From the NCBI GenBank assembly GCA_031969915.1, contig DALYJJ010000002.1:12209-76208 (forward strand): a stretch of DNA of 64,000 nucleotides. Reading direction: 5' to 3'. The notes under the pieces were generated by a model. That model did no database searches and was not told the origin of the DNA. It saw only the letters and a list, made by a program, of their open reading frames with translations. Source of the DNA: Bryobacteraceae bacterium (GTDB taxonomy: Bacteria; Acidobacteriota; Terriglobia; Bryobacterales; Bryobacteraceae). The position numbers were made by a program, and so were the translations under genes. Below, piece by piece: positions 1,035-50,023 of this stretch (within the stretch, counting starts at the first letter, position 1; each line of letters opens with the position of its first letter).

Positions 1035-1852
1035 GGTTTCCCGCGCTGTTCGTGCTTGCCGGCTGCGCCGCGCTCGCGCAGCCCGTCCTTCAGAACGCAC
1101 GAGTTGAGAACCGCGCGACAGGCGGGTTTCGCGAGACCTACGGCGCCATCCTCGCCGCGCAGCGGGACCCCGCCTGGCTCGGATTCTCCATCGCCGCGCG
1201 GGACGGTCAGGGGACCTCCTGCTGCTGGAGCAACCAGTGCATGGGCTGCGGTCTCGAGGGCCGCGCGGAGTTCGGCCGGCAGGCGGCCCCCACGAGTCCC
1301 GTTCGCCTCGAAGGATCGCGCCGCCGCTACGTGCTGCTGCGCCTGGCCGAAGGGCGCGTCGACAAGATTCGCACGTTCAGCGAGGATTGCCCGCTTGACG
1401 CCGGTGGCCTCACGTTTTACTGGCTGGGCGATCCGAAGCCCGGCGAGATCCAGCCCCTGCTCGAGTCGCTGGTCCGAGACGGGCGCGACGAGGCCCTCTT
1501 CGTGCTGGCGCAGAACGAGGAGCCGGCCTCGCTCGACCTGCTCATTGAGACCGCGCGCAACGATCAGCGCCCGCGCATGCGCTCGAAGGCGCTGTTCTGG
1601 CTGGCGCAACGCGCGGGAGAAAAAGCCGTCGGGGTGATCCGGAATTCCCTGGAAAACGACCCCGATTCTCAGGTCAAACGCCAGGCCGTATTCGCCCTTT
1701 CGCGGCTTCCCAAGGAGCAGGCCGTGCCCCTTCTCATCGACGTAGCGAAAAAGAGTTCGCAAGCCGAGGTCCGGCGCCAGGCGATTTTCTGGCTCGGCCA
1801 GAGCAAGGACCTCCGTGCGCTCGACTTTCTGGAGGAGATCATTCGCCGGTAA
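1031..1852 (+). CDS. secreted HEAT-repeat protein
   Basis: The GTG start overlaps the upstream stop (GTGA at 1031..1034). The N-terminus looks like a signal peptide (MRFPALFVLAGCAALAQP). The C-terminal half carries HEAT-like units (PRMRSKALFWLAQ, DSQVKRQAVFALSRL, QAEVRRQAIFWLGQ). A Cys-rich patch CCWSNQCMGCG is also present. Confidence 0.65.
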   Translation: MRFPALFVLAGCAALAQPVLQNARVENRATGGFRETYGAILAAQRDPAWLGFSIAARDGQGTSCCWSNQCMGCGLEGRAEFGRQAAPTSPVRLEGSRRRYVLLRLAEGRVDKIRTFSEDCPLDAGGLTFYWLGDPKPGEIQPLLESLVRDGRDEALFVLAQNEEPASLDLLIETARNDQRPRMRSKALFWLAQRAGEKAVGVIRNSLENDPDSQVKRQAVFALSRLPKEQAVPLLIDVAKKSSQAEVRRQAIFWLGQSKDLRALDFLEEIIRR

Positions 1853-1885
1853 GCAGGTTACAATGGGGAACTCGCGGTTTCGCCT

Positions 1886-4285
1886 ATGCGGTTGGCCGAG
1901 GACCTCAAGCAATCTCTTCGTTCGCTGCGGCGCAGCCCGACCTTCTCCATCGCCGCACTTGCTCTTTTGGCCATAGGCATCGGCGGCAACGCCACGCTGT
2001 TCACTGTAGTGAAGGCCGTGTTGCTGCGGCCGCTTGCCGTCCAGGAGCCCGGCCGTTTGCTTCGGGTTTACTCGACCAACCCATCGAAAAGCGTTTCACG
2101 AATGAACGTTTCGGCGGGAAATTACCTGGCCTACGCCGCCGCCAACCGCAGCTTTGCGAGCATCGCCGCGTTTCGAGGAGCAAAGCCGGGGCTGGCCGGT
2201 CCGGCGGGTGGCGGGGTGCAGGTTGCGGGTCTGCGCGTTTCGGCGGGCTTCTGCGCGGCGCTCGGCGTGCAGCCTATTCTCGGACGTTGTTTCACGGAGG
2301 CGGAAGACCGCCAAGGCGCACCCCTGCTGGCGCTGATTTCCGAAGGGCTGTGGCGTACCCGATTCGGGGGCGTGCCGGAGGTTCTCGGTAAGGCCATTGA
2401 ACTCGACAAGCAGCCGCACACGATCGTCGGCGTGATGCCTTCCGGGATTGAATGGCCCGCGGGTACGGAGGTCTGGACGCCGCTCGCGCCTCATCCGCAG
2501 GAGGTCGCCGCCCGGGGCGCCCGCTACTTCACCGTGATCGCGCGGCTGCGGCGCGACGTTTCGCTCCAGCAGGCGGAAGCCGAGCTGAGATCGCTGGCTG
2601 CTGTCGAGGCCGAGCGTCATCCGCAATCCAACGACGGTTGGAGCGTGCGCCTGGAGCCGGTGCTTGATTCGATGATCGAGCCCGTGCGGCCCGCGCTGCT
2701 GACGCTGCTTTCCGCGGCCGGTCTTCTGCTCCTCATCGCGTGCGCGAACCTGGCCAATCTCTTACTCGTGCGCGCCGCGGCGCGCCAGCGCGACGTTGCC
2801 GTGCGCATCGCCCTCGGGGCCTCCTGGCTGCCGTTTGCCCGGCGGCCGCTGATTGAGAACGCCCTTCTGGCCGCCGCGGGTGCGGGCATCGGACTTCTGC
2901 TCGCGCAAGCGACGGTGCGAGCCATCGCCGCCACCCGCCCCGATCTGGTGCCCCGCCTGGCGGGCGCGGAAGTGGACTTCGGCGTGATTTTGTTCACCCT
3001 CCTGATCGCCGCGCTCACGGTGGCGGTTGTCGGAATCGTCCCGGCCGTGGGCATCCGCCGCACCGATGTCAATCTGACCTTGCGCGAGGGCGGACGGGGC
3101 GGCGGCGAAGGCCCCGGCCGGCGGCGTCTGCGGCAGGCCCTGGTGGTGGCCGAGGTGGCCCTCTCCGTGGTCCTGCTGGTCGGCGCAGGCCTGGTTCTCC
3201 GTACGCTCGCCAAGCTCTACAGCGTGGAGACCGGCTTCCGCGCAGAGAATCTGATCGCCCTTCAAATGACGCTCTCCGACAGCTTCGAGGAGCCCTACTA
3301 TTGGAATCTGTTGGAGCGGTCGCTCGCCTTGGCCCGCGGAGTGCCCGGCGTTGAAGCCGCCGGCGCCTCGGGCGTGCTGCCGCTGACGCCGGCCAATCTG
3401 CAGGTACAGTTCCAGCGCGAAAACGCCGCCGGCTCCTCGGTCAGCGAAAAACACCGCGCCCGTTACGACGCCGTCAGCACCGGCTACTTCGAAGCGATGG
3501 GTGTGCCCCTCAAGGACGGCCGCGCCATCGGTGATCGGGATGGCGCCAACGCGCCGCCCGTGGTGGTGGTCAGCGAAGCACTCGCGCGCCGCCATTTTCC
3601 GGGGGAGAGCGCGGTGGGCAAGCGCCTGATCGTGAACTACGGGAATCCCGCGCCGCGCGAGATCGTGGGCGTGGTTGGCGACATGAAGCACCTTTCGCTC
3701 GAGGAGACTCCGCTCGCCGCCATCTACGTTCCCTACCTGCAGGCGCCGCTTCCGATGCTTGCGATTGCCGTCCGCACGGCGCGGCCCGACGCCGGGGAGC
3801 AGGTCCGCCGGCAGATCCAGACGCTTGACCCGGCGCTCGCGCCCCCTCGCATCTCGTCCATGGAAGAGGTGGTGGCCGAGTCCACGTTCCAGCGGCGGTT
3901 GCTGGCCGGGCTACTGGGTGGCTTCGCGTTTCTAGCTCTGCTGCTGGCCTCCATCGGCGTGTATGGCGTGATGGCCTACGCCGTGGAGCAGCGGCGTGTG
4001 GAGTTCGGCGTCCGGCTCGCCTTGGGCGCGCAGCCCAAGGATCTGCGACGCCGCGTGCTGCGCCAGGCGCTCGCTCTCGCTCTGGCGGGAAGCACGCTCG
4101 GCTTCGCGGCGGCGATCCCATCCGCGCGCCTCCTGCGGTCCATGCTCTTTGGCGTCGAGCCCGCCGATCCGGTCACCCTCGCGGCGGTGGTCGCAGTTCT
4201 CATCGTGGTGGCCTTGGCGGCCAGTTACTTGCCCGCGGCACGGGCTACCCGTGTCGACCCCATCACCGCTTTGCGCAGCGAATAG
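1886..4285 (+). CDS. MacB-like/FtsX-family ABC transporter permease (acidobacterial duplicated orphan permease type)
   Basis: 799 aa. The N-terminus MRLAEDLKQSLRSLRRSPTFSIAALALLAIGIGGNATLFTVV is the usual MacB/ADOP start. There are two extracytoplasmic domains, each followed by FtsX-type TM bundles. The C-terminal tail AARATRVDPITALRSE is typical of the family. No ABC ATPase gene is adjacent. Confidence 0.8.
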   Translation: MRLAEDLKQSLRSLRRSPTFSIAALALLAIGIGGNATLFTVVKAVLLRPLAVQEPGRLLRVYSTNPSKSVSRMNVSAGNYLAYAAANRSFASIAAFRGAKPGLAGPAGGGVQVAGLRVSAGFCAALGVQPILGRCFTEAEDRQGAPLLALISEGLWRTRFGGVPEVLGKAIELDKQPHTIVGVMPSGIEWPAGTEVWTPLAPHPQEVAARGARYFTVIARLRRDVSLQQAEAELRSLAAVEAERHPQSNDGWSVRLEPVLDSMIEPVRPALLTLLSAAGLLLLIACANLANLLLVRAAARQRDVAVRIALGASWLPFARRPLIENALLAAAGAGIGLLLAQATVRAIAATRPDLVPRLAGAEVDFGVILFTLLIAALTVAVVGIVPAVGIRRTDVNLTLREGGRGGGEGPGRRRLRQALVVAEVALSVVLLVGAGLVLRTLAKLYSVETGFRAENLIALQMTLSDSFEEPYYWNLLERSLALARGVPGVEAAGASGVLPLTPANLQVQFQRENAAGSSVSEKHRARYDAVSTGYFEAMGVPLKDGRAIGDRDGANAPPVVVVSEALARRHFPGESAVGKRLIVNYGNPAPREIVGVVGDMKHLSLEETPLAAIYVPYLQAPLPMLAIAVRTARPDAGEQVRRQIQTLDPALAPPRISSMEEVVAESTFQRRLLAGLLGGFAFLALLLASIGVYGVMAYAVEQRRVEFGVRLALGAQPKDLRRRVLRQALALALAGSTLGFAAAIPSARLLRSMLFGVEPADPVTLAAVVAVLIVVALAASYLPAARATRVDPITALRSE

Positions 4286-4286
4286 C

Positions 4287-4478
4287 CTACACCGCCCGCA
4301 GCACACGCGCGGGCAACGTCACAATCGCCCACAGCAGATCGAGGACGCCGCCCACCGCGATGCCCACAATCCGGAACGGCAGCAGCAGCAGCCACACCAG
4401 CGGGTAGGCGATCAACGCCACCAGCGCCAGCGGCCAGCACAGGAACAGCAATATCAGCCAGAGCAGAAACTTCACCAT
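4287..4478 (-). CDS. small hydrophobic membrane protein (hypothetical)
   Basis: This is the ATG-initiated part (MVKFLLWLILLFLCWPLALVALIAYPLVWLLLLPFRIVGIAVGGVLDLLWAIVTL...) of track ORF 4287..4517. It has two clear TM helices. The longer version would start at a GTG at 4517. I see no family assignment. Confidence 0.45.
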   Translation of the reverse strand: MVKFLLWLILLFLCWPLALVALIAYPLVWLLLLPFRIVGIAVGGVLDLLWAIVTLPARVLRAV

Positions 4479-4562
4479 GTCAATTAACAATACGCGCACG
4501 CCGCCCCTGGAGTTCACGCAACAAAACGGCCGATCGCGCGTCTAAACCGCCATAGGCAATCC

Positions 4563-5369
4563 ATGCGTCTGGGATCTGGCGAATACTGTGGGGAAGTGGT
4601 CCGGCGGAAAGGCACACCCGGCCTGGTGCTCACTGAGACGCGTTACGCCGCAGGCAGCGCGGTGGCCCGCCACTCCCATGCGCGCCCCTATCTGTGCCTG
4701 GTGCGCACCGGCGGCTATACGGAGACTTATAGCGGAAGCACGCGCGACGTCGCACCGCTGACCGCCGCGTTTCATCCCGCCGGCGAGGAGCACGCCGAGA
4801 AGTTCCACGGCCGGGAGACTCGATCGTTCAACGTGGAGTTCCTGCCCGGCGGTGCGGCGGACCGCGTGGTGCTGCCCGGCGAAGCGGAGTTCCGCAGCGG
4901 TGGTGCAGTCGCGAACCTCCTTTTGCGCCTGTACGGCGAGTTCCGCCTGATGGACGACGTTTCGCCGCTGGCCATTGAGGGGCTGGTCCTGCAGATCCTG
5001 GCCGAGTTGGAGCGAGCCCGGCGCGAACCCTCGACGAGCCAGTCGCCGGAATGGCTCTCTGCCGCGCGCGAGCTGTTGTCCCTGCGCTTCGCCGAAACCC
5101 TCTCGCTCAGCGAGCTTGCCGCCGAGGTCAAAGTCCACCCCGTCCACTTCGCCTCCGCCTTCCGCAAGCACTTCGGTTGCACCGCCGGCGACTACGTGCG
5201 GCGGTTGCGAGTGGACTTTGCCTGCCGCCGCCTCAGCTCGTCCTCCGCCTCGCTCGCCGGCATTGCCTTCGAAGCCGGCTTCACGGATCAGAGCCACTTC
5301 ACGCGGACCTTCCGCCGCCACACAGGCGTGACTCCGGCCCAGTACCGCCAGTCCTTCCGAGCCCGCTAA
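4563..5369 (+). CDS. AraC-family transcriptional regulator
   Basis: The C-terminal double HTH is typical of AraC/XylS: LSELAAEVKVHPVHFASAFRKHFGCTAGDYVRRLRVDFACRRL ... IAFEAGFTDQSHFTRTFRRHTGVTPAQYR. The N-terminal half looks like a cupin. Confidence 0.85.
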   Translation: MRLGSGEYCGEVVRRKGTPGLVLTETRYAAGSAVARHSHARPYLCLVRTGGYTETYSGSTRDVAPLTAAFHPAGEEHAEKFHGRETRSFNVEFLPGGAADRVVLPGEAEFRSGGAVANLLLRLYGEFRLMDDVSPLAIEGLVLQILAELERARREPSTSQSPEWLSAARELLSLRFAETLSLSELAAEVKVHPVHFASAFRKHFGCTAGDYVRRLRVDFACRRLSSSSASLAGIAFEAGFTDQSHFTRTFRRHTGVTPAQYRQSFRAR

Positions 5370-5430
5370 TTGTGTACCAACGGCTTAGCTGTGTGCAAGA
5401 GACGCGAGCCGGCAAACGGTATCCTCGGTC

Positions 5431-6489
5431 ATGACGAGAAGATGGATGCTCTGTGCGGCCTGGGCCGTATCCATGGCCTGGGCCCAGCGCCCCGACCCCG
5501 ACGGCCCCATCGACGACGCCGTTCGCCGCCAGGTGGTCGACACGCTCGCCACTCGGCTCGAAGACCGCTACGTGTTTCCCGAAACCGCGAAGCAGATCGT
5601 GGAGCACCTTCGCCGCAAGCAGCGAGACGGTGCATACGCGCAGATCGAGACCGGCCGCGCCTTCGCCAAACAACTTACCGCGGACGTCCAGGAGATCTCC
5701 AAGGACAAGCACCTGCGCGTGAACTACGTGCCCGAAGGCGTGCCCGAGCTGCGCCGTCCTTCGCCCGAGGACATCCATCGTCAGCGAGCGTTCATGGCCC
5801 GCGTCAACTACGGCTTCGAAAAGCTGGAGCGCCTGGAGGGCAACGTCGGCTACCTGGATCTGCGGGGTTTCATGGACCCCGCGCTGGGCGGCGACACCGC
5901 GTTCGCGGCCATGCAATTCCTGGCCAACACTGACGCGCTGATCATCGATCTCCGCCGCAACGGCGGCGGCGCGCCGGGCATGGTTGCGTTGATCACATCG
6001 TGGCTGTTTGGCGACGATCGCGTGCATCTGAACGACCTGTACTTCCGCCCCGCCGGCAGCACGGAGCAATGGCACACCATGCCCTGGGTTCCGGGCAAAC
6101 GATACGCCGGCAAGGACGTCTACCTCCTTACGAGCAAGTTCACTTTCTCCGCCGCGGAGGAGTTCGCCTACAACCTGAAGAACCTCCAGCGGGCGACCAT
6201 CGTTGGTGAAACCACGGGCGGCGGCGCGCACCCCGGCGAGGGCGTGAAGTTGCACGAGAAGTTCAGCGCGTTCATCTCTACCGGGCGCGCGATCAATCCC
6301 TATTCCAAGACCAACTGGGAAGGGACGGGTGTGGCGCCCGACGTCGCCACGGACGCCGAAGTTGCCCTCAAGAAAGCGCACCTGATGGCGCTCGAAAAGG
6401 CGCTCTCGAAGGGCGGGTTGGAGCCTGCCCGGGTGAAGCAGGCGGTGGAGGACAAGATCGTTTCGCTAAAGAAGGAGCTAGGACAATGA
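5431..6489 (+). CDS. S41-family (tail-specific/IRBP-like) peptidase, secreted
   Basis: Signal peptide MTRRWMLCAAWAVSMAWAQ. S41 motifs are present: IIDLRRNGGGAPGMV, LLTSKFTFSAAEEFAYNL (Ser nucleophile context) and TIVGETTGGGAHPG. Confidence 0.8.
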   Translation: MTRRWMLCAAWAVSMAWAQRPDPDGPIDDAVRRQVVDTLATRLEDRYVFPETAKQIVEHLRRKQRDGAYAQIETGRAFAKQLTADVQEISKDKHLRVNYVPEGVPELRRPSPEDIHRQRAFMARVNYGFEKLERLEGNVGYLDLRGFMDPALGGDTAFAAMQFLANTDALIIDLRRNGGGAPGMVALITSWLFGDDRVHLNDLYFRPAGSTEQWHTMPWVPGKRYAGKDVYLLTSKFTFSAAEEFAYNLKNLQRATIVGETTGGGAHPGEGVKLHEKFSAFISTGRAINPYSKTNWEGTGVAPDVATDAEVALKKAHLMALEKALSKGGLEPARVKQAVEDKIVSLKKELGQ

Positions 6490-12090: not shown

Positions 12091-12280
12091 GGCACTCTTA
12101 CTCTATCACCGGCGCCGCGCCCTTTCTTTGGGAAAGAGCAACGAATTCCGTTCTATTTGTGGAGGGAATTTCCCTCTTCTTGGGCGCGCGCCCGGCCGCG
12201 GTGAGCGCCGCCGTCCGGAGGATTAACCTGGCGGGAACATCGCGCCCCTCTTTCACGTAGAGTGATTGATGGAGGATCCC

Positions 12281-17334: not shown

Positions 17335-17424
17335 GGAGGATTGGCCGAGCGGTTGAAGGCGGCGGTCTTGAAAACCGCAGTAGGGGAAACTCTACCGGGG
17401 GTTCGAATCCCTCATCCTCCGCCA
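17335..17424 (+). tRNA. tRNA-Ser(UGA)
   Basis: GGAGGATTGGCCGAGCGGTTGAAGGCGGCGGTCTTGAAAACCGCAGTAGGGGAAACTCTACCGGGGGTTCGAATCCCTCATCCTCCGCCA. 7-bp acceptor GGAGGAT/ATCCTCC, anticodon stem GCGGT/ACCGC with loop CTTGAAA (anticodon TGA), long variable arm, GGTTCGAATCC T-loop, encoded CCA. Confidence 0.93.
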
Positions 17425-20217: not shown

Positions 20218-20311
20218 TGGCGGAAGCCAGTGGGGGTCGAACCCACCCGAGACGCAAGCGCCTCACACTGGTTTTGAAGACCAGGCCCGGCACCGGCCGG
20301 AATTGGCTTCC
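20218..20311 (-). tRNA. selC: tRNA-Sec(UCA), selenocysteine tRNA
   Basis: The reverse complement reads GGAAGCCAATTCCGGCCGGTGCCGGGCCTGGTCTTCAAAACCAGTGTGAGGCGCTTGCGTCTCGGGTGGGTTCGACCCCCACTGGCTTCCGCCA (94 nt). 8-bp acceptor GGAAGCCA/TGGCTTCC, 6-bp D-stem TCCGGC/GCCGGG with a 4-nt loop, anticodon loop CTTCAAA (UCA), long extra arm, 5-bp T-stem, discriminator G plus CCA. It closely parallels E. coli selC (GGAAG...CCGGUG...CUUCAAA...GGUUCGAC...CUUCCGCCA). Confidence 0.9.
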
Positions 20312-47449: not shown

Positions 47450-47651
47450 GGCATTTACGAGTGATGAAAGACTAACCGGCTGAGGGGAAAAACGCACCTC
47501 TCCCGAAGTCACGGGAGACCCTACATCCCTTTAGATTACCCGTGCCTCCGGCTGCGATGGCCAAAATGACATGAAAGTTTGCTGACAATTCGGTTGCGAT
47601 TGACGGTGTCGCAACCGAGGCGGCTCGGTGGTCTTAGGGGTGAGGAAAGCT

Positions 47652-48683
47652 ATGCGCTTCATGAGAGCAATGACGGTCCTGGCGGCGGCGGTGCTCTGGG
47701 CGGCGCCGTCCTTCGGTGCCGCGGTCTTTTTTCCCCTGCAGACGGGAAACGAATGGGTGTATCGGAACGCAAGGTGGGGCGACGGGTTCCACGTCCGCGT
47801 CGGATTGCCCGTGATGATCAACGGCCGCGTCTACCACGCCCTGGACGGATACACCGAGAAGCGGCTGCTGGTCCGCGTGGATGAGCGCGGCCAACTGTTG
47901 GCCGTGAATGAGGAGACCGGCCGCGAGGAACTAGTGACCTCCTTCGAGACTCCCGGCGGCGGATGGTGGCCGGCCAACGGACGCATATGCGGCGGCGAAG
48001 GAGAGACGCAGGAGCGCCGCGAAGAACACGATGGGCCGGCCGGGCCGTTCCGCGAGGTGCTGAGTATTCGTTACCGTGGCCTCTCCTGTGCGGACTACGG
48101 CGCCGAGAGCGAGCAGTTCGCGGAGAACATTGGCATGGTGCGGCGCGTCAACCAGACGTTGTTGGGCCCGCGCGTTCACGACTTGGTCTATGCGCGCGTC
48201 GGGCGAAGCGTGATCGAAGCACGGCCCCACGGACGGTTCACGCTTGTGGTGGAACCGGACGTCGAACAAGGCTTCCTGCGAGCGACGCTGCGCCTGCAAA
48301 CAGGCCCTGCCGGGCCGCTCCGCCTGGAGTTCCCTTCGTCGCAGGTCTACGAGGTGCTGGTCAAGGACGCCGCCGGCGCGGTCCTCTGGCGGTACTCCGA
48401 CGGCCTAGTGTTCCTGCCCGCGGTGCACCCGCGCGAATTCGCGGGCGAGTGGAGCGCCGAGGTGCGCATCCCGCAACCGTCCGCGGAGAGATTCACGGTG
48501 CAGGCCTGGATGACAACCAGCGAGCCGTCATTTGCGGCCATGGTGCCCGGGGTGGGACTTGAACCCACACGCCACTTGCGCGGCAAAGGAGTGCGAGTGA
48601 ACACAACTTCTCCCGGCTTCATCGAGGCGCCGATCCGTGGAGCCGACTACGTTATTGACGGCGGCACCATGCCAACCATCTGA
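47652..48683 (+). CDS. secreted protein with a BsuPI-like (intracellular proteinase inhibitor fold) C-terminal domain; the last ~47 codons are chimeric
   Basis: The ATG at 47652 is preceded by GGGGTGAGGAAAG and gives the signal peptide MRFMRAMTVLAAAVLWAAPSFG. The BsuPI-like pattern is LEFPSSQVYEVLVKDAAGAVLWRYSDGLVFLPAV...GEWSAEVRIP. From 48541 the frame runs through the antisense of a tRNA-Leu 3' fragment (VPGVGLEPTRHLRGKG) and unrelated sequence, so the native 3' end is uncertain. Confidence 0.55.
   Translation: MRFMRAMTVLAAAVLWAAPSFGAAVFFPLQTGNEWVYRNARWGDGFHVRVGLPVMINGRVYHALDGYTEKRLLVRVDERGQLLAVNEETGREELVTSFETPGGGWWPANGRICGGEGETQERREEHDGPAGPFREVLSIRYRGLSCADYGAESEQFAENIGMVRRVNQTLLGPRVHDLVYARVGRSVIEARPHGRFTLVVEPDVEQGFLRATLRLQTGPAGPLRLEFPSSQVYEVLVKDAAGAVLWRYSDGLVFLPAVHPREFAGEWSAEVRIPQPSAERFTVQAWMTTSEPSFAAMVPGVGLEPTRHLRGKGVRVNTTSPGFIEAPIRGADYVIDGGTMPTI
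48541..48588 (-). pseudogene. 3' fragment of a tRNA-Leu gene (variable arm, T-arm, acceptor 3' strand, CCA)
   Basis: The reverse complement reads ...GCCGCGCAAGTGGCGTGTGGGTTCAAGTCCCACCCCGGGCACCA: a class II variable hairpin, T-arm GTGGG-TTCAAGT-CCCAC and acceptor 3' strand CCCGGGC plus ACCA. I could not fold a matching 5' acceptor strand, D-arm or anticodon arm from the adjacent sequence. Confidence 0.6.
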
Positions 48684-48700
48684 GCGGTTCTTGAGCGAAC

Positions 48701-49022
48701 TGGTGCGGGCGGAGGGACTTGAACCCTCACGGACCTTGCGGTCCAACGGATTTTCTTGCCCTCTACGGCTTTCGCCGCCCTTGGCTTACTTGCCAGGGTT
48801 TGGGGTCTGGACTATCCCTTCACCATGCCCCGAATCAAGTTCCGGGATTAGGCGCTGCCCGTCTAGTCTCTACACCTTCCCGGCCGTTTCGGGCCGGGCT
48901 TGGCTCGGGATCGCCATGTTACAGGGTTCCCCGACTTTGGGCAGTTCTGCATCGCCGGTTTCCCGGCGAGCACTCAAGTTCTCTCTCAAGTCCGATGCGT
49001 CTGCCGATTCCGCCACGCCCGC
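48701..49022 (-). tRNA. tRNA-Leu(UAA) interrupted by a group I intron (exon 1 49022..48988, exon 2 48754..48701)
   Basis: Exon 1 is GCGGGCGTGGCGGAATCGGCAGACGCATCGGACTT. Exon 2 is AAAATCCGTTGGACCGCAAGGTCCGTGAGGGTTCAAGTCCCTCCGCCCGCACCA. Joined they give an 89-nt class II tRNA: acceptor GCGGGCG/CGCCCGC, anticodon stem TCGGA/TCCGT, loop CTTAAAA (anticodon UAA), variable hairpin GGACC-GCAA-GGTCC, T-loop GGTTCAAGTCC, encoded CCA. Confidence 0.88.
48755..48987 (-). ncRNA. group I intron (IC3-like), 233 nt, inserted between U34 and A35 of tRNA-Leu(UAA)
   Basis: The intron starts after exon U (GAGAGAGAACTTGAGTGC...) and ends in G (...GTAGAGGGCAAG). There are GAAA-tetraloop hairpins: TCGCCGG-GAAA-CCGGCGA and GGC-GAAA-GCC. 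The core strings CCCGAGCCAAGCCC and GGGAAGGTGTAGAGACTAGACGGGCAGCGCCTAA ... GGGATAGTCC match the conserved P3-P8 core of the Anabaena tRNA-Leu and Azoarcus tRNA-Ile introns as I recall them. P7 pairs GACTA with TAGTC. Confidence 0.85.
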
Positions 49023-49134
49023 ACGGTTTCAAGGTAGCATGCACTCGCCCAAAGGGGGGAGGGGGACGCGGAGAGAGTTGCAAGCTCGTTGGCAGATATG
49101 ACAACATGAAGGGATGGAGGCTGCACAATAGCCC

Positions 49135-49488
49135 GTGGCGGAAGCCCGCAAAACGCGGACTGTCTCATGGATGAAAGCCGCGCTGCATGACTTCGGGAAG
49201 TTCCCGGAAGGTGCAAGGACGATTTGCCTCACTGCGCTGACGATCGCGGCCGAGGGCGGCAAGGCCGATATCGCGAAGCCCTTGCACGGTCTGGGGTCGG
49301 GCGTGATGGAGATTGCACTGCCGTTTAGGGGCGACGCTTTCCGCGTCGTCTATGCCCTGCAGATTGGCGAAGACATCTGGGTGCTGCATGCTTTTCAGAA
49401 GAAATCGACGAAAAGCATTATGACGCCCAAACACGAGATGAACCTCATAAAGGACCGTCTGAAGAGACTGAAGGAGATGCTGAAATGA
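49135..49488 (+). CDS. type II toxin, RelE/ParE superfamily, Gp49-like (HigB-type)
   Basis: ...TVSWMKAALHDFGKFPEGAR......L..A.EGGKADIAKPLHGLGSGVMEIALPFRGDAFRVVYALQIGEDIWVLHAFQKKSTKSIMTPKHEMNLIKDRLKRLKE matches the Gp49/DUF891 toxin pattern. I kept the GTG start at 49135 because family members begin before the conserved Trp. An alternative ATG lies at 49171. Confidence 0.8.
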   Translation: MAEARKTRTVSWMKAALHDFGKFPEGARTICLTALTIAAEGGKADIAKPLHGLGSGVMEIALPFRGDAFRVVYALQIGEDIWVLHAFQKKSTKSIMTPKHEMNLIKDRLKRLKEMLK

Positions 49489-49811
49489 AACGCGAGGCAA
49501 AACTCGGTGTGGTGCGCGGTAGCGGCAACGTCTTCCGCGACGTTGGAGCGAAGAACGCAGACGCGGAGCAATTCAAGGCCATCCTCGCCGCCGAAATCAT
49601 CAAGGTGCTCGACCGCGAGAAACTGACCGTACGCGCGGCGCATGCAAGGACCGGCTTTGCCGCTGCCGACTTCTCCCGCATCCGCAACGCGGACCTCGGC
49701 CGATTCACCGTCGATCGGTTGATGGCGATCATCAACCGGCTTGGCTCGCGCGTCGAGGTGAGAATTCGCGTGCGTCGCGCCGAAGACGTCATGCATGAGG
49801 TGACGGCGTGA
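49485..49811 (+). CDS. XRE-family HTH antitoxin (HigA-type)
   Basis: The ATG overlaps the toxin stop (ATGA). 108 aa: VVRGSGNVFRDVG..NADAEQFKA.LAAEIIKVLDREKLTVRAAHARTGFAAADFSRIRNADLGRFTVDRLMAIINRLG is the usual partner of Gp49-like toxins. Toxin-first order matches HigBA. Confidence 0.8.
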   Translation: MKREAKLGVVRGSGNVFRDVGAKNADAEQFKAILAAEIIKVLDREKLTVRAAHARTGFAAADFSRIRNADLGRFTVDRLMAIINRLGSRVEVRIRVRRAEDVMHEVTA

Positions 49812-50023
49812 ATCGGATCATTGAGCGATTTCACCACCCGGGCGGCGCGCTGACTCTGCTCCGACACTCCAAGTCTACCAGCCGCGAAACGGAACGGCCT
49901 CCGCAGGCTCGGCGCGCATCTTTACCTTGATATACAGTGTTGTAGACCTGTTAGTACTATTCTGCCGAAACTTCTTCTATCTTGCCTTGAAGCGGGGCCG
50001 TCCCAGGTGATCCAATCGCCGGT

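Follow-up and report, generated by a model that had tools for sequence, protein, structure and literature searches.

The gene described here is a tRNA-Leu(UAA) gene split by a group I intron, located on the minus strand of contig DALYJJ010000002.1 (GenBank assembly GCA_031969915.1, Bryobacteraceae bacterium) between the two remaining pieces of a second, broken tRNA-Leu gene. The analysis was performed on a stretch of 64,000 nt (positions 12,209 to 76,208 of the contig), which is referred to as the window, and all coordinates are counted from its first base. The split gene consists of a 35-nt exon 1 (48988-49022, minus strand), a 233-nt intron (48755-48987, minus strand) and a 54-nt exon 2 (48701-48754, minus strand), and the initial annotation had given these lengths and coordinates exactly. 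Exon 1 comprises the acceptor 5' strand GCGGGCG, the D arm, the 5' strand of the anticodon stem and the loop bases CUU; its 3' end reads GGACUU, with U-1 at 48988. Exon 2 starts with AAAAUCC and comprises the loop bases AAAA, the 3' strand of the anticodon stem, the long variable arm, the T arm, the acceptor strand CGCCCGC and an encoded ACCA, so that it ends in CCA. When the exons were joined, ARAGORN returned a class II tRNA-Leu(taa) of 89 nt with the anticodon loop CUUAAAA, an encoded CCA and a perfect cloverleaf, in agreement with the product that had been proposed. The intron is IC3-like (type Leu.3Ug), begins with GAGAGA, ends with CAAG (terminal or omega-G at 48755) and lies between U34 and A35, after loop position 3; only one of the combinations of U-1 and terminal G that were tested gave an ARAGORN tRNA-Leu(UAA) with the splice at this position. 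That the insert follows an exon U and has G as its last base was thereby confirmed, as were its compact size and the lack of an open reading frame (ORF), and the strings CCCGAGCCAAGCCC, GGGAAGGUGUAGAGACUAGACGGG and GGGAUAGUCC and the GAAA-capped hairpins that had been noted in it are all present.

The split gene was missed by ARAGORN at default settings, which reported only a tRNA-Ser and a tRNA-Sec in the window, and an Rfam scan of the whole window at the gathering threshold likewise found these two tRNAs and nothing at the split-gene locus. Since split genes of this kind are passed over by default tRNA finders and by Rfam at threshold, the genomes that carry them look as if they were without tRNA-Leu(UAA). 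ARAGORN in intron mode found the gene but shifted the intron by two bases and miscalled the isotype as tRNA-Phe. A local search with RF00028 and permissive filters aligned the full model (1-253) with 33.2 bits and an E-value of 1.8e-6; the score lies under the Rfam gathering score of 50. A weak Rfam LOOT match over P8-P9 (48764-48854, minus strand; 26.8 bits against 46.4) was rejected as probably a chance likeness of GNRA-capped hairpins. Opposite the tRNA and intron, on the plus strand, run two ORFs of about 150 aa each (48637-49101 and 48719-49174), which are likely to be miscalled as protein-coding.

A P1-P9 model was drawn by hand on the window sequence and subsequently projected onto a MAFFT alignment of 41 homologs that had been made without structure fitting. 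P1 (48972-48991) is formed by exon ACUU and intron GAG pairing with CUUGAGU, the U-1.G wobble joining 48988 to 48975, and is followed by P2 (48952-48969), a helix of 7 bp capped by a GAAA tetraloop (L2), which is 95.5% paired and has compensatory changes in 6/7 pairs. The segment 48874-48944 holds the P3 5' strand (48944-48939), J3/4 (AAA) and P4-P5-P6-P6a; P3, P4 and P6 are 100% paired and nearly invariant, 6/7 pairs of P6a covary, and P5 is short in this intron. The P7 5' strand, J7/3 and the P3 3' strand occupy 48855-48870 (G48870, a bulged A and GACU at 48868-48865; P3 3' strand at 48860-48855), and in the model P7 and P3 make the pseudoknot core, with the bulged A beside the guanosine-binding G-C pair. 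P8/P8a, J8/7 (AAGGGAU) and the P7 3' strand (AGUCC, 48813-48809) lie at 48809-48854; the P8/P8a hairpin carries a tetraloop-receptor-like motif (CCUAA...AUGG), and P8 is 99.4% paired with two covarying pairs. P9, P9a and P9b follow at 48759-48805, with a GAAA tetraloop capping P9b and covarying pairs in P9a (6/7) and P9b (3/5). All of these elements are on the minus strand.

The 69 pairs of the model were paired in 90.6% of cells across the 41 homologs, compared with 27-48% when the partners were slid by one to three columns. Both sides had changed in 30 of the 69 pairs, and none of 500 shuffles attained the observed values. The covarying helices are P2, P6a, P8, P9a and P9b; P3, P4, P6 and P7 are invariant and so uninformative for covariation. 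The pattern by which the homologs were found included the P7 5' strand and the P3 3' strand, whose invariance here is by construction; the P7 3' strand is invariant in 41/41 homologs though it lies outside that pattern. The U-1.G wobble is likewise present in 41/41, and the terminal G (G243) is invariant. The unconstrained minimum free energy fold has a z-score of -4.2 and recovers most helices, and the layout agrees with the consensus structure line of the curated bacterial tRNA intron alignment of Williams (2020, bioRxiv 10.1101/2020.01.27.920355). The P1-P9 architecture that was to be drawn, including the P3/P7 pseudoknot, thus has comparative support. The RF00028 E-value, the fold z-score and at least 102 independent homologous genes with the same split place the insert far beyond chance. 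The insert is confirmed as a compact group I intron of the type found in bacterial tRNAs (IC3, Leu.3Ug), both by its position after loop position 3 and by its alignment to the curated seeds.

By analogy with the family, the split gene would be a working tRNA-Leu(UAA) gene. The precursor would fold into P1-P9 and bind free guanosine at the G-C pair of P7, the first cut would fall after the U.G wobble of P1, and the terminal G would then take the same site, ligation of the exons yielding the mature tRNA. The window has one other tRNA-Leu(UAA)-like sequence, and that one is in two pieces. It is extremely improbable that the split gene is instead dead, as a pseudogene or with a non-splicing intron, and that tRNA-Leu(UAA) is supplied from elsewhere in the genome: the sub-threshold RF00028 score and a search that found no promoter consensus would suit such a reading, against which stand the intact core elements, the helices kept by compensatory change over 41 diverged copies, the perfect cloverleaf and the broken state of the other tRNA-Leu(UAA)-like sequence.

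The two pieces of the other gene lie on the same strand as the split gene and on either side of it. The orphan 5' piece (49826-49843, minus strand; GCCCGGGUGGUGAAAUCG), upstream, is intron-less and of the class II tRNA-Leu type; it comprises the acceptor strand GCCCGGG, UG and the start of the D arm, and is internally deleted after the D loop. Its 16-nt signature occurs once in the 64 kb, compared with 0.02 occurrences expected by chance. The orphan 3' half (48541-48590, minus strand; 50 nt, ending in CCCGGGCACCA), 110 nt downstream of the split gene, comprises the 3' strand of the anticodon stem, a long variable arm, an intact T arm, the acceptor strand CCCGGGC and ACCA. Its acceptor strand is the exact complement of the GCCCGGG of the 5' piece, it is identical to exon 2 at 38/50 positions with differences in the T stem and acceptor strand, and it was matched by the exon 2 profile hidden Markov model (HMM; nhmmer, E = 8.8e-5). 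Neither Rfam nor ARAGORN at normal settings recognised it as an intact tRNA. It was considered as a second split tRNA or as an attachment-site duplicate of the real gene, and both were rejected because its T stem and acceptor differ from those of exon 2 and it lies only 110 nt away. The window accordingly shows a tRNA gene split into fragments with complementary acceptor strands that lie at the two ends of a segment, and between these fragments, which are themselves no tRNAs, a complete trnL(UAA).

Between the orphan pieces are found a toxin-antitoxin pair on the opposite strand (49135-49811, plus strand), a 22-nt leader directly 5' of the split gene (49023-49044, minus strand; GTGCATGCTACCTTGAAACCGT) and the intact intron-bearing gene. 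The pair consists of a Gp49/HigB-like toxin (49135-49488; PF05973, 60 bits) and an HTH_37 antitoxin (49485-49811; PF13744, 74 bits), whose ORFs overlap by 4 nt. The leader is conserved in four related loci (L092, L116, L018 and L002); it may belong to the imported segment discussed below and could hold a promoter. A 351-aa ORF with a BsuPI domain (47628-48683, plus strand) reads on through the orphan 3' half in antisense, giving it the tail GVGLEPT, and is likely a miscall. A contig of the metagenome-assembled genome (MAG) GCA_003513885.1, namely DOSZ01000061.1, matches 4.7 kb of the window (54891-50160) at 100% identity; by its length it appears to end about 100 nt short of the orphan 5' piece, near 49950, so that an independent assembly breaks at the edge of the element.

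The four related loci show what the decayed piece in the window has lost. In L116, L018, L002 and L092 a complete orphan 5' half, which the piece in the window matches (GCCCGGG type; TGCCGGG in L092), lies about 48 nt upstream of a real gene preceded by the same leader, and continues through an unbroken CTTAAAA loop (GGACTTAAAA) before diverging (GTCCGA...). The toxin-antitoxin pair is missing at this position in all four, the spacer being about 48 nt. In L116 the matching orphan 3' half is preserved as well, 4.9 kb downstream, and its last 28 nt (T arm, acceptor 3' strand and ACCA) are identical to those in the window; a 12-nt direct repeat, AAAGGACTTAAA, is present at both junctions of this locus. 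The interior of L116 from the real gene to the orphan 3' half (1406-5878) encodes a LuxR-type response regulator, a PAS histidine kinase and a CarboxypepD_reg/Plug receptor, which may be cargo or later insertions; no integrase and no phage genes were found in it. Judged from this comparison, the window appears to show a decayed version of the L116-type arrangement, in which the 5' half has been internally deleted, the core has been lost and the toxin-antitoxin pair has come to lie in the 48-nt spacer.

The homologs were collected by scanning species-representative genomes with the exact 22-nt J6/7-P7-P3' string, which gave at least 120 loci, and the counts that follow refer to the matches listed. 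Exon 1 and exon 2 HMMs were then searched against 103 loci. At about 30 of the 103, from Acidobacteriota, Alphaproteobacteria and Binatia, orphan 5' halves precede the real gene in the same orientation; that these might be intact neighbouring tRNA-Leu genes was rejected, as just one of about 31 overlaps an ARAGORN call. Most extend through CTTAAAA(TC) and then stop, so that the break falls within the anticodon loop of a gene without an intron. The spacers between orphan 5' half and real gene cluster at about 50 nt and about 1.4 kb, and the 1.4-kb spacers contain a conserved gene, oriented like the tRNA gene, whose product is about 400 aa long. All 13 full-length copies of this protein matched the PHROG_1 integrase family (best E-value 1e-33), Pfam Phage_integrase (PF00589) was found in 9/13 and an integrase SAM-like N-terminal domain in 10/13, and the motifs GLRPDE, SLRH and a terminal Y are invariant. 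It was identified from PHROGs and Pfam as a predicted tyrosine integrase; its profile gave no match against PDB sequences or NCBIfam. At 31 loci the intron-bearing gene is preceded, at a distance of 30-240 nt, by the integrase gene, either complete or reduced to a C-terminal remnant. An orphan half, an integrase or both were present at 29 of the 73 loci with at least 2 kb of upstream sequence (Acidobacteriota 11/23, Alphaproteobacteria 16/41). Cultured strains among the relatives include Bradyrhizobium lablabi CCBAU 23086, Sphingobium cupriresistens and Asticcacaulis sp. 201.

The acceptor stems bear on which of the two genes is native. At every Acidobacteriota and Binatia locus the orphan acceptor (GCCCGGG, GCCCGGA, GCCGGGA or similar) can form only 2-5 of the 7 pairs with the real 3' strand CGCCCGC, and the acceptor GCGGGCG is shared by 22 of the 27 real genes compared, across phyla, the orphan acceptors varying from locus to locus. 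The mispairing and the shared acceptor together indicate that exon 1, intron and exon 2 belong together, apart from the broken gene. Genes of both types are also known intact and without an intron, GCCCGGG/CCCGGGC in a metagenome contig (L138) and GCGGGCG in an alphaproteobacterium (L017). In the latter, Pacificispira spongiicola, the intact GCGGGCG intron-less trnL(UAA) lies about 0.8 kb from an intron core string whose context did not resolve into a split tRNA (the two features are at 5153-5174 and 5972-6057 of the locus, plus strand). Orphan and real exon 1 are 82-100% identical in many Alphaproteobacteria. This identity would fit an alphaproteobacterial origin of the carried tRNA. A probe with the spliced junction matched 49 metagenome contigs, all tRNAs of other lineages with at most 75/89 identities, and no intron-less allele of the imported gene was found among them.

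By record title, the loci comprise 35 from Acidobacteriota (including Acidobacteriaceae, Terriglobales, Bryobacterales, Acidiferrales and Sulfotelmatobacter), 64 from Alphaproteobacteria, a few from Gammaproteobacteria, three from Binatia, one from Limnocylindria, and others. ARAGORN in intron mode also misplaced the introns of this set and gave isotypes of Phe or Ser, and all splice offsets were therefore rescanned with U-1 and a terminal G required. At least 102 of the 120 matches listed, 29 of them from Acidobacteriota, are tRNA-Leu(UAA) genes split as CUU/...G/AAAA, and most of the remaining 18 are truncated by the edge of the locus or have C at position -1. Three of the latter kind (L077, L101 and L112, from Acidobacteriota, Binatia and Limnocylindria MAGs) have introns after C and not U (ACTC/AGACC...), the Leu.3Cg type, which Williams (2020, bioRxiv 10.1101/2020.01.27.920355) reported from Proteobacteria only. 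In reviews, group I introns of bacterial tRNAs are confined to cyanobacteria and a small number of proteobacteria, the groups that the initial annotation had also named. The intron proved no rarity in the present lineage: at least 35 of the 120 loci listed are from Acidobacteriota, and 5,292 split bacterial tRNA genes in about 80,000 genomes, with Leu.3Ug as one of four classical types, are counted in the same preprint. A literature search for a report of such introns in Acidobacteria found no direct precedent. The intron itself adds one more ordinary member to a class that has been catalogued and is common in Acidobacteriota.

The acidobacterial host that had been suggested was borne out. The mature tRNA is 100% identical between the window and a Bryobacterales MAG (L022), exon 1 included, and the six nearest introns (81-86% identical) among the matches listed are all from Terriglobia or Bryobacterales. 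A neighbour-joining tree of the introns was built on raw identity, without support values. In it, 25 of the 29 acidobacterial introns form one clade, in which Binatia and one alphaproteobacterial copy are nested; the window falls in a Bryobacterales/Terriglobia subclade, and four acidobacterial introns lie amid alphaproteobacterial ones. Among the seeds of Williams, the window intron is 81% identical to Ncf2.Leu.3Ug, 71.5% to Thr.3Ug, 69.0% to Arg.3Ug, 66.1% to Arg.5Ug, 59.1% to the cyanobacterial Sel1.Leu.3Ug and 58.5% to the Azoarcus Ile seed, so that by this distance method, and with a single cyanobacterial seed, it is no nearer to the trnL introns of cyanobacteria than to those in other tRNA genes.

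Taken together, the split gene is probably an import that lodged in the wreck of the native trnL(UAA), was borne there by a mobile element and was then vertically inherited within the clade. In an ancestor of the Terriglobia/Bryobacterales clade, an element with a tyrosine integrase would have recombined with the anticodon loop of the native gene (core GGACTTAAAA). It would have left that gene unrebuilt and supplied its own complete, intron-bearing trnL(UAA), on which the cell would then have depended; such dependence would explain the tight conservation of the ribozyme. The arrangement would afterwards have been passed on vertically, and in the window genome the integrase would have been lost, the scars partly deleted and the toxin-antitoxin pair inserted. 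The alternative posed initially, an ancient vertical intron or a mobile one, would accordingly be answered by parts of both, since the context points to import followed by vertical descent within the clade.

Several points weigh against this reconstruction. The homolog sample was selected by a single core string, which also limits the tree drawn from it, and the taxon labels are the titles of MAGs and other records. In the window no integrase was found by tblastn, and the attachment core is deleted from both scars, so that the integration event there is inferred from the relatives. About 60% of the loci with at least 2 kb of upstream sequence have neither scar nor integrase. A right-hand scar was seen in only four loci and was found nowhere up to 5.7 kb downstream in 14 integrase-bearing loci, which leaves the size and the right end of the element undefined. 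The leader has no match to a sigma-70 consensus, and a promoter and terminator scan of the locus found no consensus. Finally, the orphan acceptors of several or many Alphaproteobacteria can form 6-7 of the 7 pairs with the 3' end of the real gene, and there the 5' half and the intron alone may have been imported.

Of the other explanations, the one that survives best, though unlikely, is an ancient vertical intron in a native gene, the orphan pieces being a decayed unrelated tandem duplicate or the trace of another island nearby. The large acidobacterial clade of the tree, within which exons and introns diverge in step, would be expected under such descent, as would the scarless majority of loci and the failure to find an intron-less allele of the tRNA among the 49 metagenome junction matches. 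It does not readily account for orphan halves that bracket the gene on the same strand and break at the anticodon loop, for the 12-nt direct repeat of L116, for the recurrence of bracket and integrase in three phyla, or for a real acceptor stem that is constant across phyla when the orphan acceptors are specific to the locus.

Homing followed by faulty repair is less probable still. An endonuclease would have cut the native anticodon loop, and a diverged donor allele would have been copied in together with its upstream flank, leaving a ghost 5' exon behind. Ghost 5' halves do end at or just past the anticodon loop and greatly outnumber ghost 3' halves, and an intron with an endonuclease is known in the tRNA-fMet gene of Synechocystis. 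None of the introns of 200-280 nt considered here has an endonuclease ORF, however, the ghost is adjoined by a tyrosine integrase, and both halves are present in the window and in L116, where the direct repeat is typical of site-specific recombination.

It is improbable to a yet higher degree that the element carried only the 5' half, so that integrase, exon 1 and intron crossed over at AAAATCC and exon 2 is native. A 5' fragment is left by 159 of 3,919 Islander islands, no downstream scar was seen at the 14 integrase-bearing loci over the stretch of up to 5.7 kb covered, and the alphaproteobacterial acceptors that pair well have been mentioned above. In the window and at all Acidobacteriota and Binatia loci, by contrast, the orphan 5' acceptors are unable to pair with the real exon 2, and a separate orphan 3' half with the strand CCCGGGC lies downstream in the window, L116 and L057.

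Import of a complete gene by an integrase element thus remains the preferred reading, and copies of the gene outside chromosomes are consistent with it. Over its full 322 nt the gene had end-to-end matches, about 70% identical, in 1,264 plasmid records. Most of these are conjugative plasmids from Escherichia, Klebsiella, Salmonella and Acinetobacter; the presence of copies on conjugative plasmids indicates that the intron-bearing gene travels. No full-length copy of the split gene was found in phage genomes. On pCTX-M3 (L171, NC_004464.2) a complete unannotated trnL(UAA) split as CTT/...G/AAAA occupies 6001-6299 (RF00028, 36.8 bits, below threshold) and adjoins aac(3)-IId and an AAA-ATPase gene, and about 1,260 other plasmid records are of this kind; an apparent chromosomal copy of this subtype, on the opposite strand, was seen in L007, judged from its first 65 nt or so. 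On the 317-kb conjugative plasmid of Bradyrhizobium sp. ISRA443 (L172), a split trnL(UAA) that is 75.5% identical to the window gene lies at 6001-6290, 0.7 kb from the trb transfer operon (RF00028, 45.0 bits, below threshold).

At the DNA level the intron lies within the would-be attachment core (GGACTT/AAAATCC). It is conceivable, though doubtful, that by splitting this core the intron lets the replacement gene escape as a second target of the integrase, and that integrase elements are the main route by which these introns spread outside cyanobacteria, including onto resistance plasmids. As the target would be the near-universal anticodon arm, such an element could invade hosts whose tRNA-Leu bodies differ. 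A literature search for a group I intron joined to the strategy of tRNA-dependent lysogeny, or for a link between intron and integrase, found no direct precedent.

Elsewhere in the window, a tRNA-Ser(UGA) lies at 17335-17424 (plus strand) and a tRNA-Sec at 20218-20311 (minus strand; Rfam, 76 bits), from which the organism probably uses selenocysteine. Synteny with the relatives at the DNA level was not found beyond the split gene itself, and exact-protein look-ups for three window proteins returned no match.

Since the 1990s it has been debated whether the group I introns of bacterial tRNA genes are old inheritances or mobile, for the most part on the basis of patchy phylogenies. The window DNA may be read as a physical record of one answer, a broken native gene around an imported intron-bearing gene, with the type of enzyme that would be responsible still present in relatives. 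What is new is this context, nested in a broken native trnL, linked to an integrase and recurring across phyla, and not the intron. It would extend the strategy of disrupting a host tRNA and bringing one's own from actinobacteriophages to other phyla and to non-phage elements, and it suggests a function for the intron in the biology of mobile elements. The cultured carriers make integration, excision and target immunity open to bench study, and more than 1,000 clinical resistance plasmids carry an unannotated copy.

Among known systems, the intron is closest to the Leu.3Ug class (Williams, 2020; Ncf2.Leu.3Ug), with which it shares the host tRNA, the split CUU/...g/AAAA and the P1-P9 layout including P9a and P9b, and from which it has no essential difference; extra 'ghost' exons are treated as ARAGORN artefacts in that preprint, which does not mention a link to integrases. 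The Azoarcus tRNA-Ile IC3 ribozyme (Aol6.Ile2.5Ug) shares the compact core, with GAGCCAAG and the J6/7-P7-J7/3 string GGUGUAGAGACUAGACGG identical to those of the window intron, and likewise has GAAA loops on P2 and P9 and receptor-like CCUAA...AUGG motifs; it differs in its tRNA, its loop position and its overall sequence (58.5% identity), and the window intron has a short P5 and an extended, three-part P9. The cyanobacterial and plastid trnL(UAA) intron uses the identical insertion site, as had been stated, and belongs to the same subgroup. The likeness of core strings that had been noted for both introns held for Azoarcus. The window intron is only 59% identical to the cyanobacterial seed Sel1, no nearer than to introns of other tRNAs, and its gene has integrase scars in place of plain vertical descent.

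As regards the setting, canonical islands of the Islander type share integration at the anticodon loop, an integrase beside the junction and displaced tDNA fragments that mark the ends; tyrosine integrases commonly use the anticodon loop, and an anticodon-centred attP is found in 2,083 of 3,919 Islander islands. Such islands rebuild the target from a partial copy, whereas here neither junction works and a complete separate gene is carried. Closer in this respect is tRNA-dependent lysogeny (Guerrero-Bustamante and Hatfull, 2024, PMC10865867), in which mycobacteriophages and other actinobacteriophages were shown to disrupt a host tRNA gene and complement it with their own, likewise with a tyrosine integrase, a short tRNA core and a target that is not rebuilt. 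The hosts here are Acidobacteriota, Alphaproteobacteria and Binatia instead, no phage genes were seen in the interior of L116, and the replacement gene carries a group I intron of its own, placed exactly inside the attachment core.

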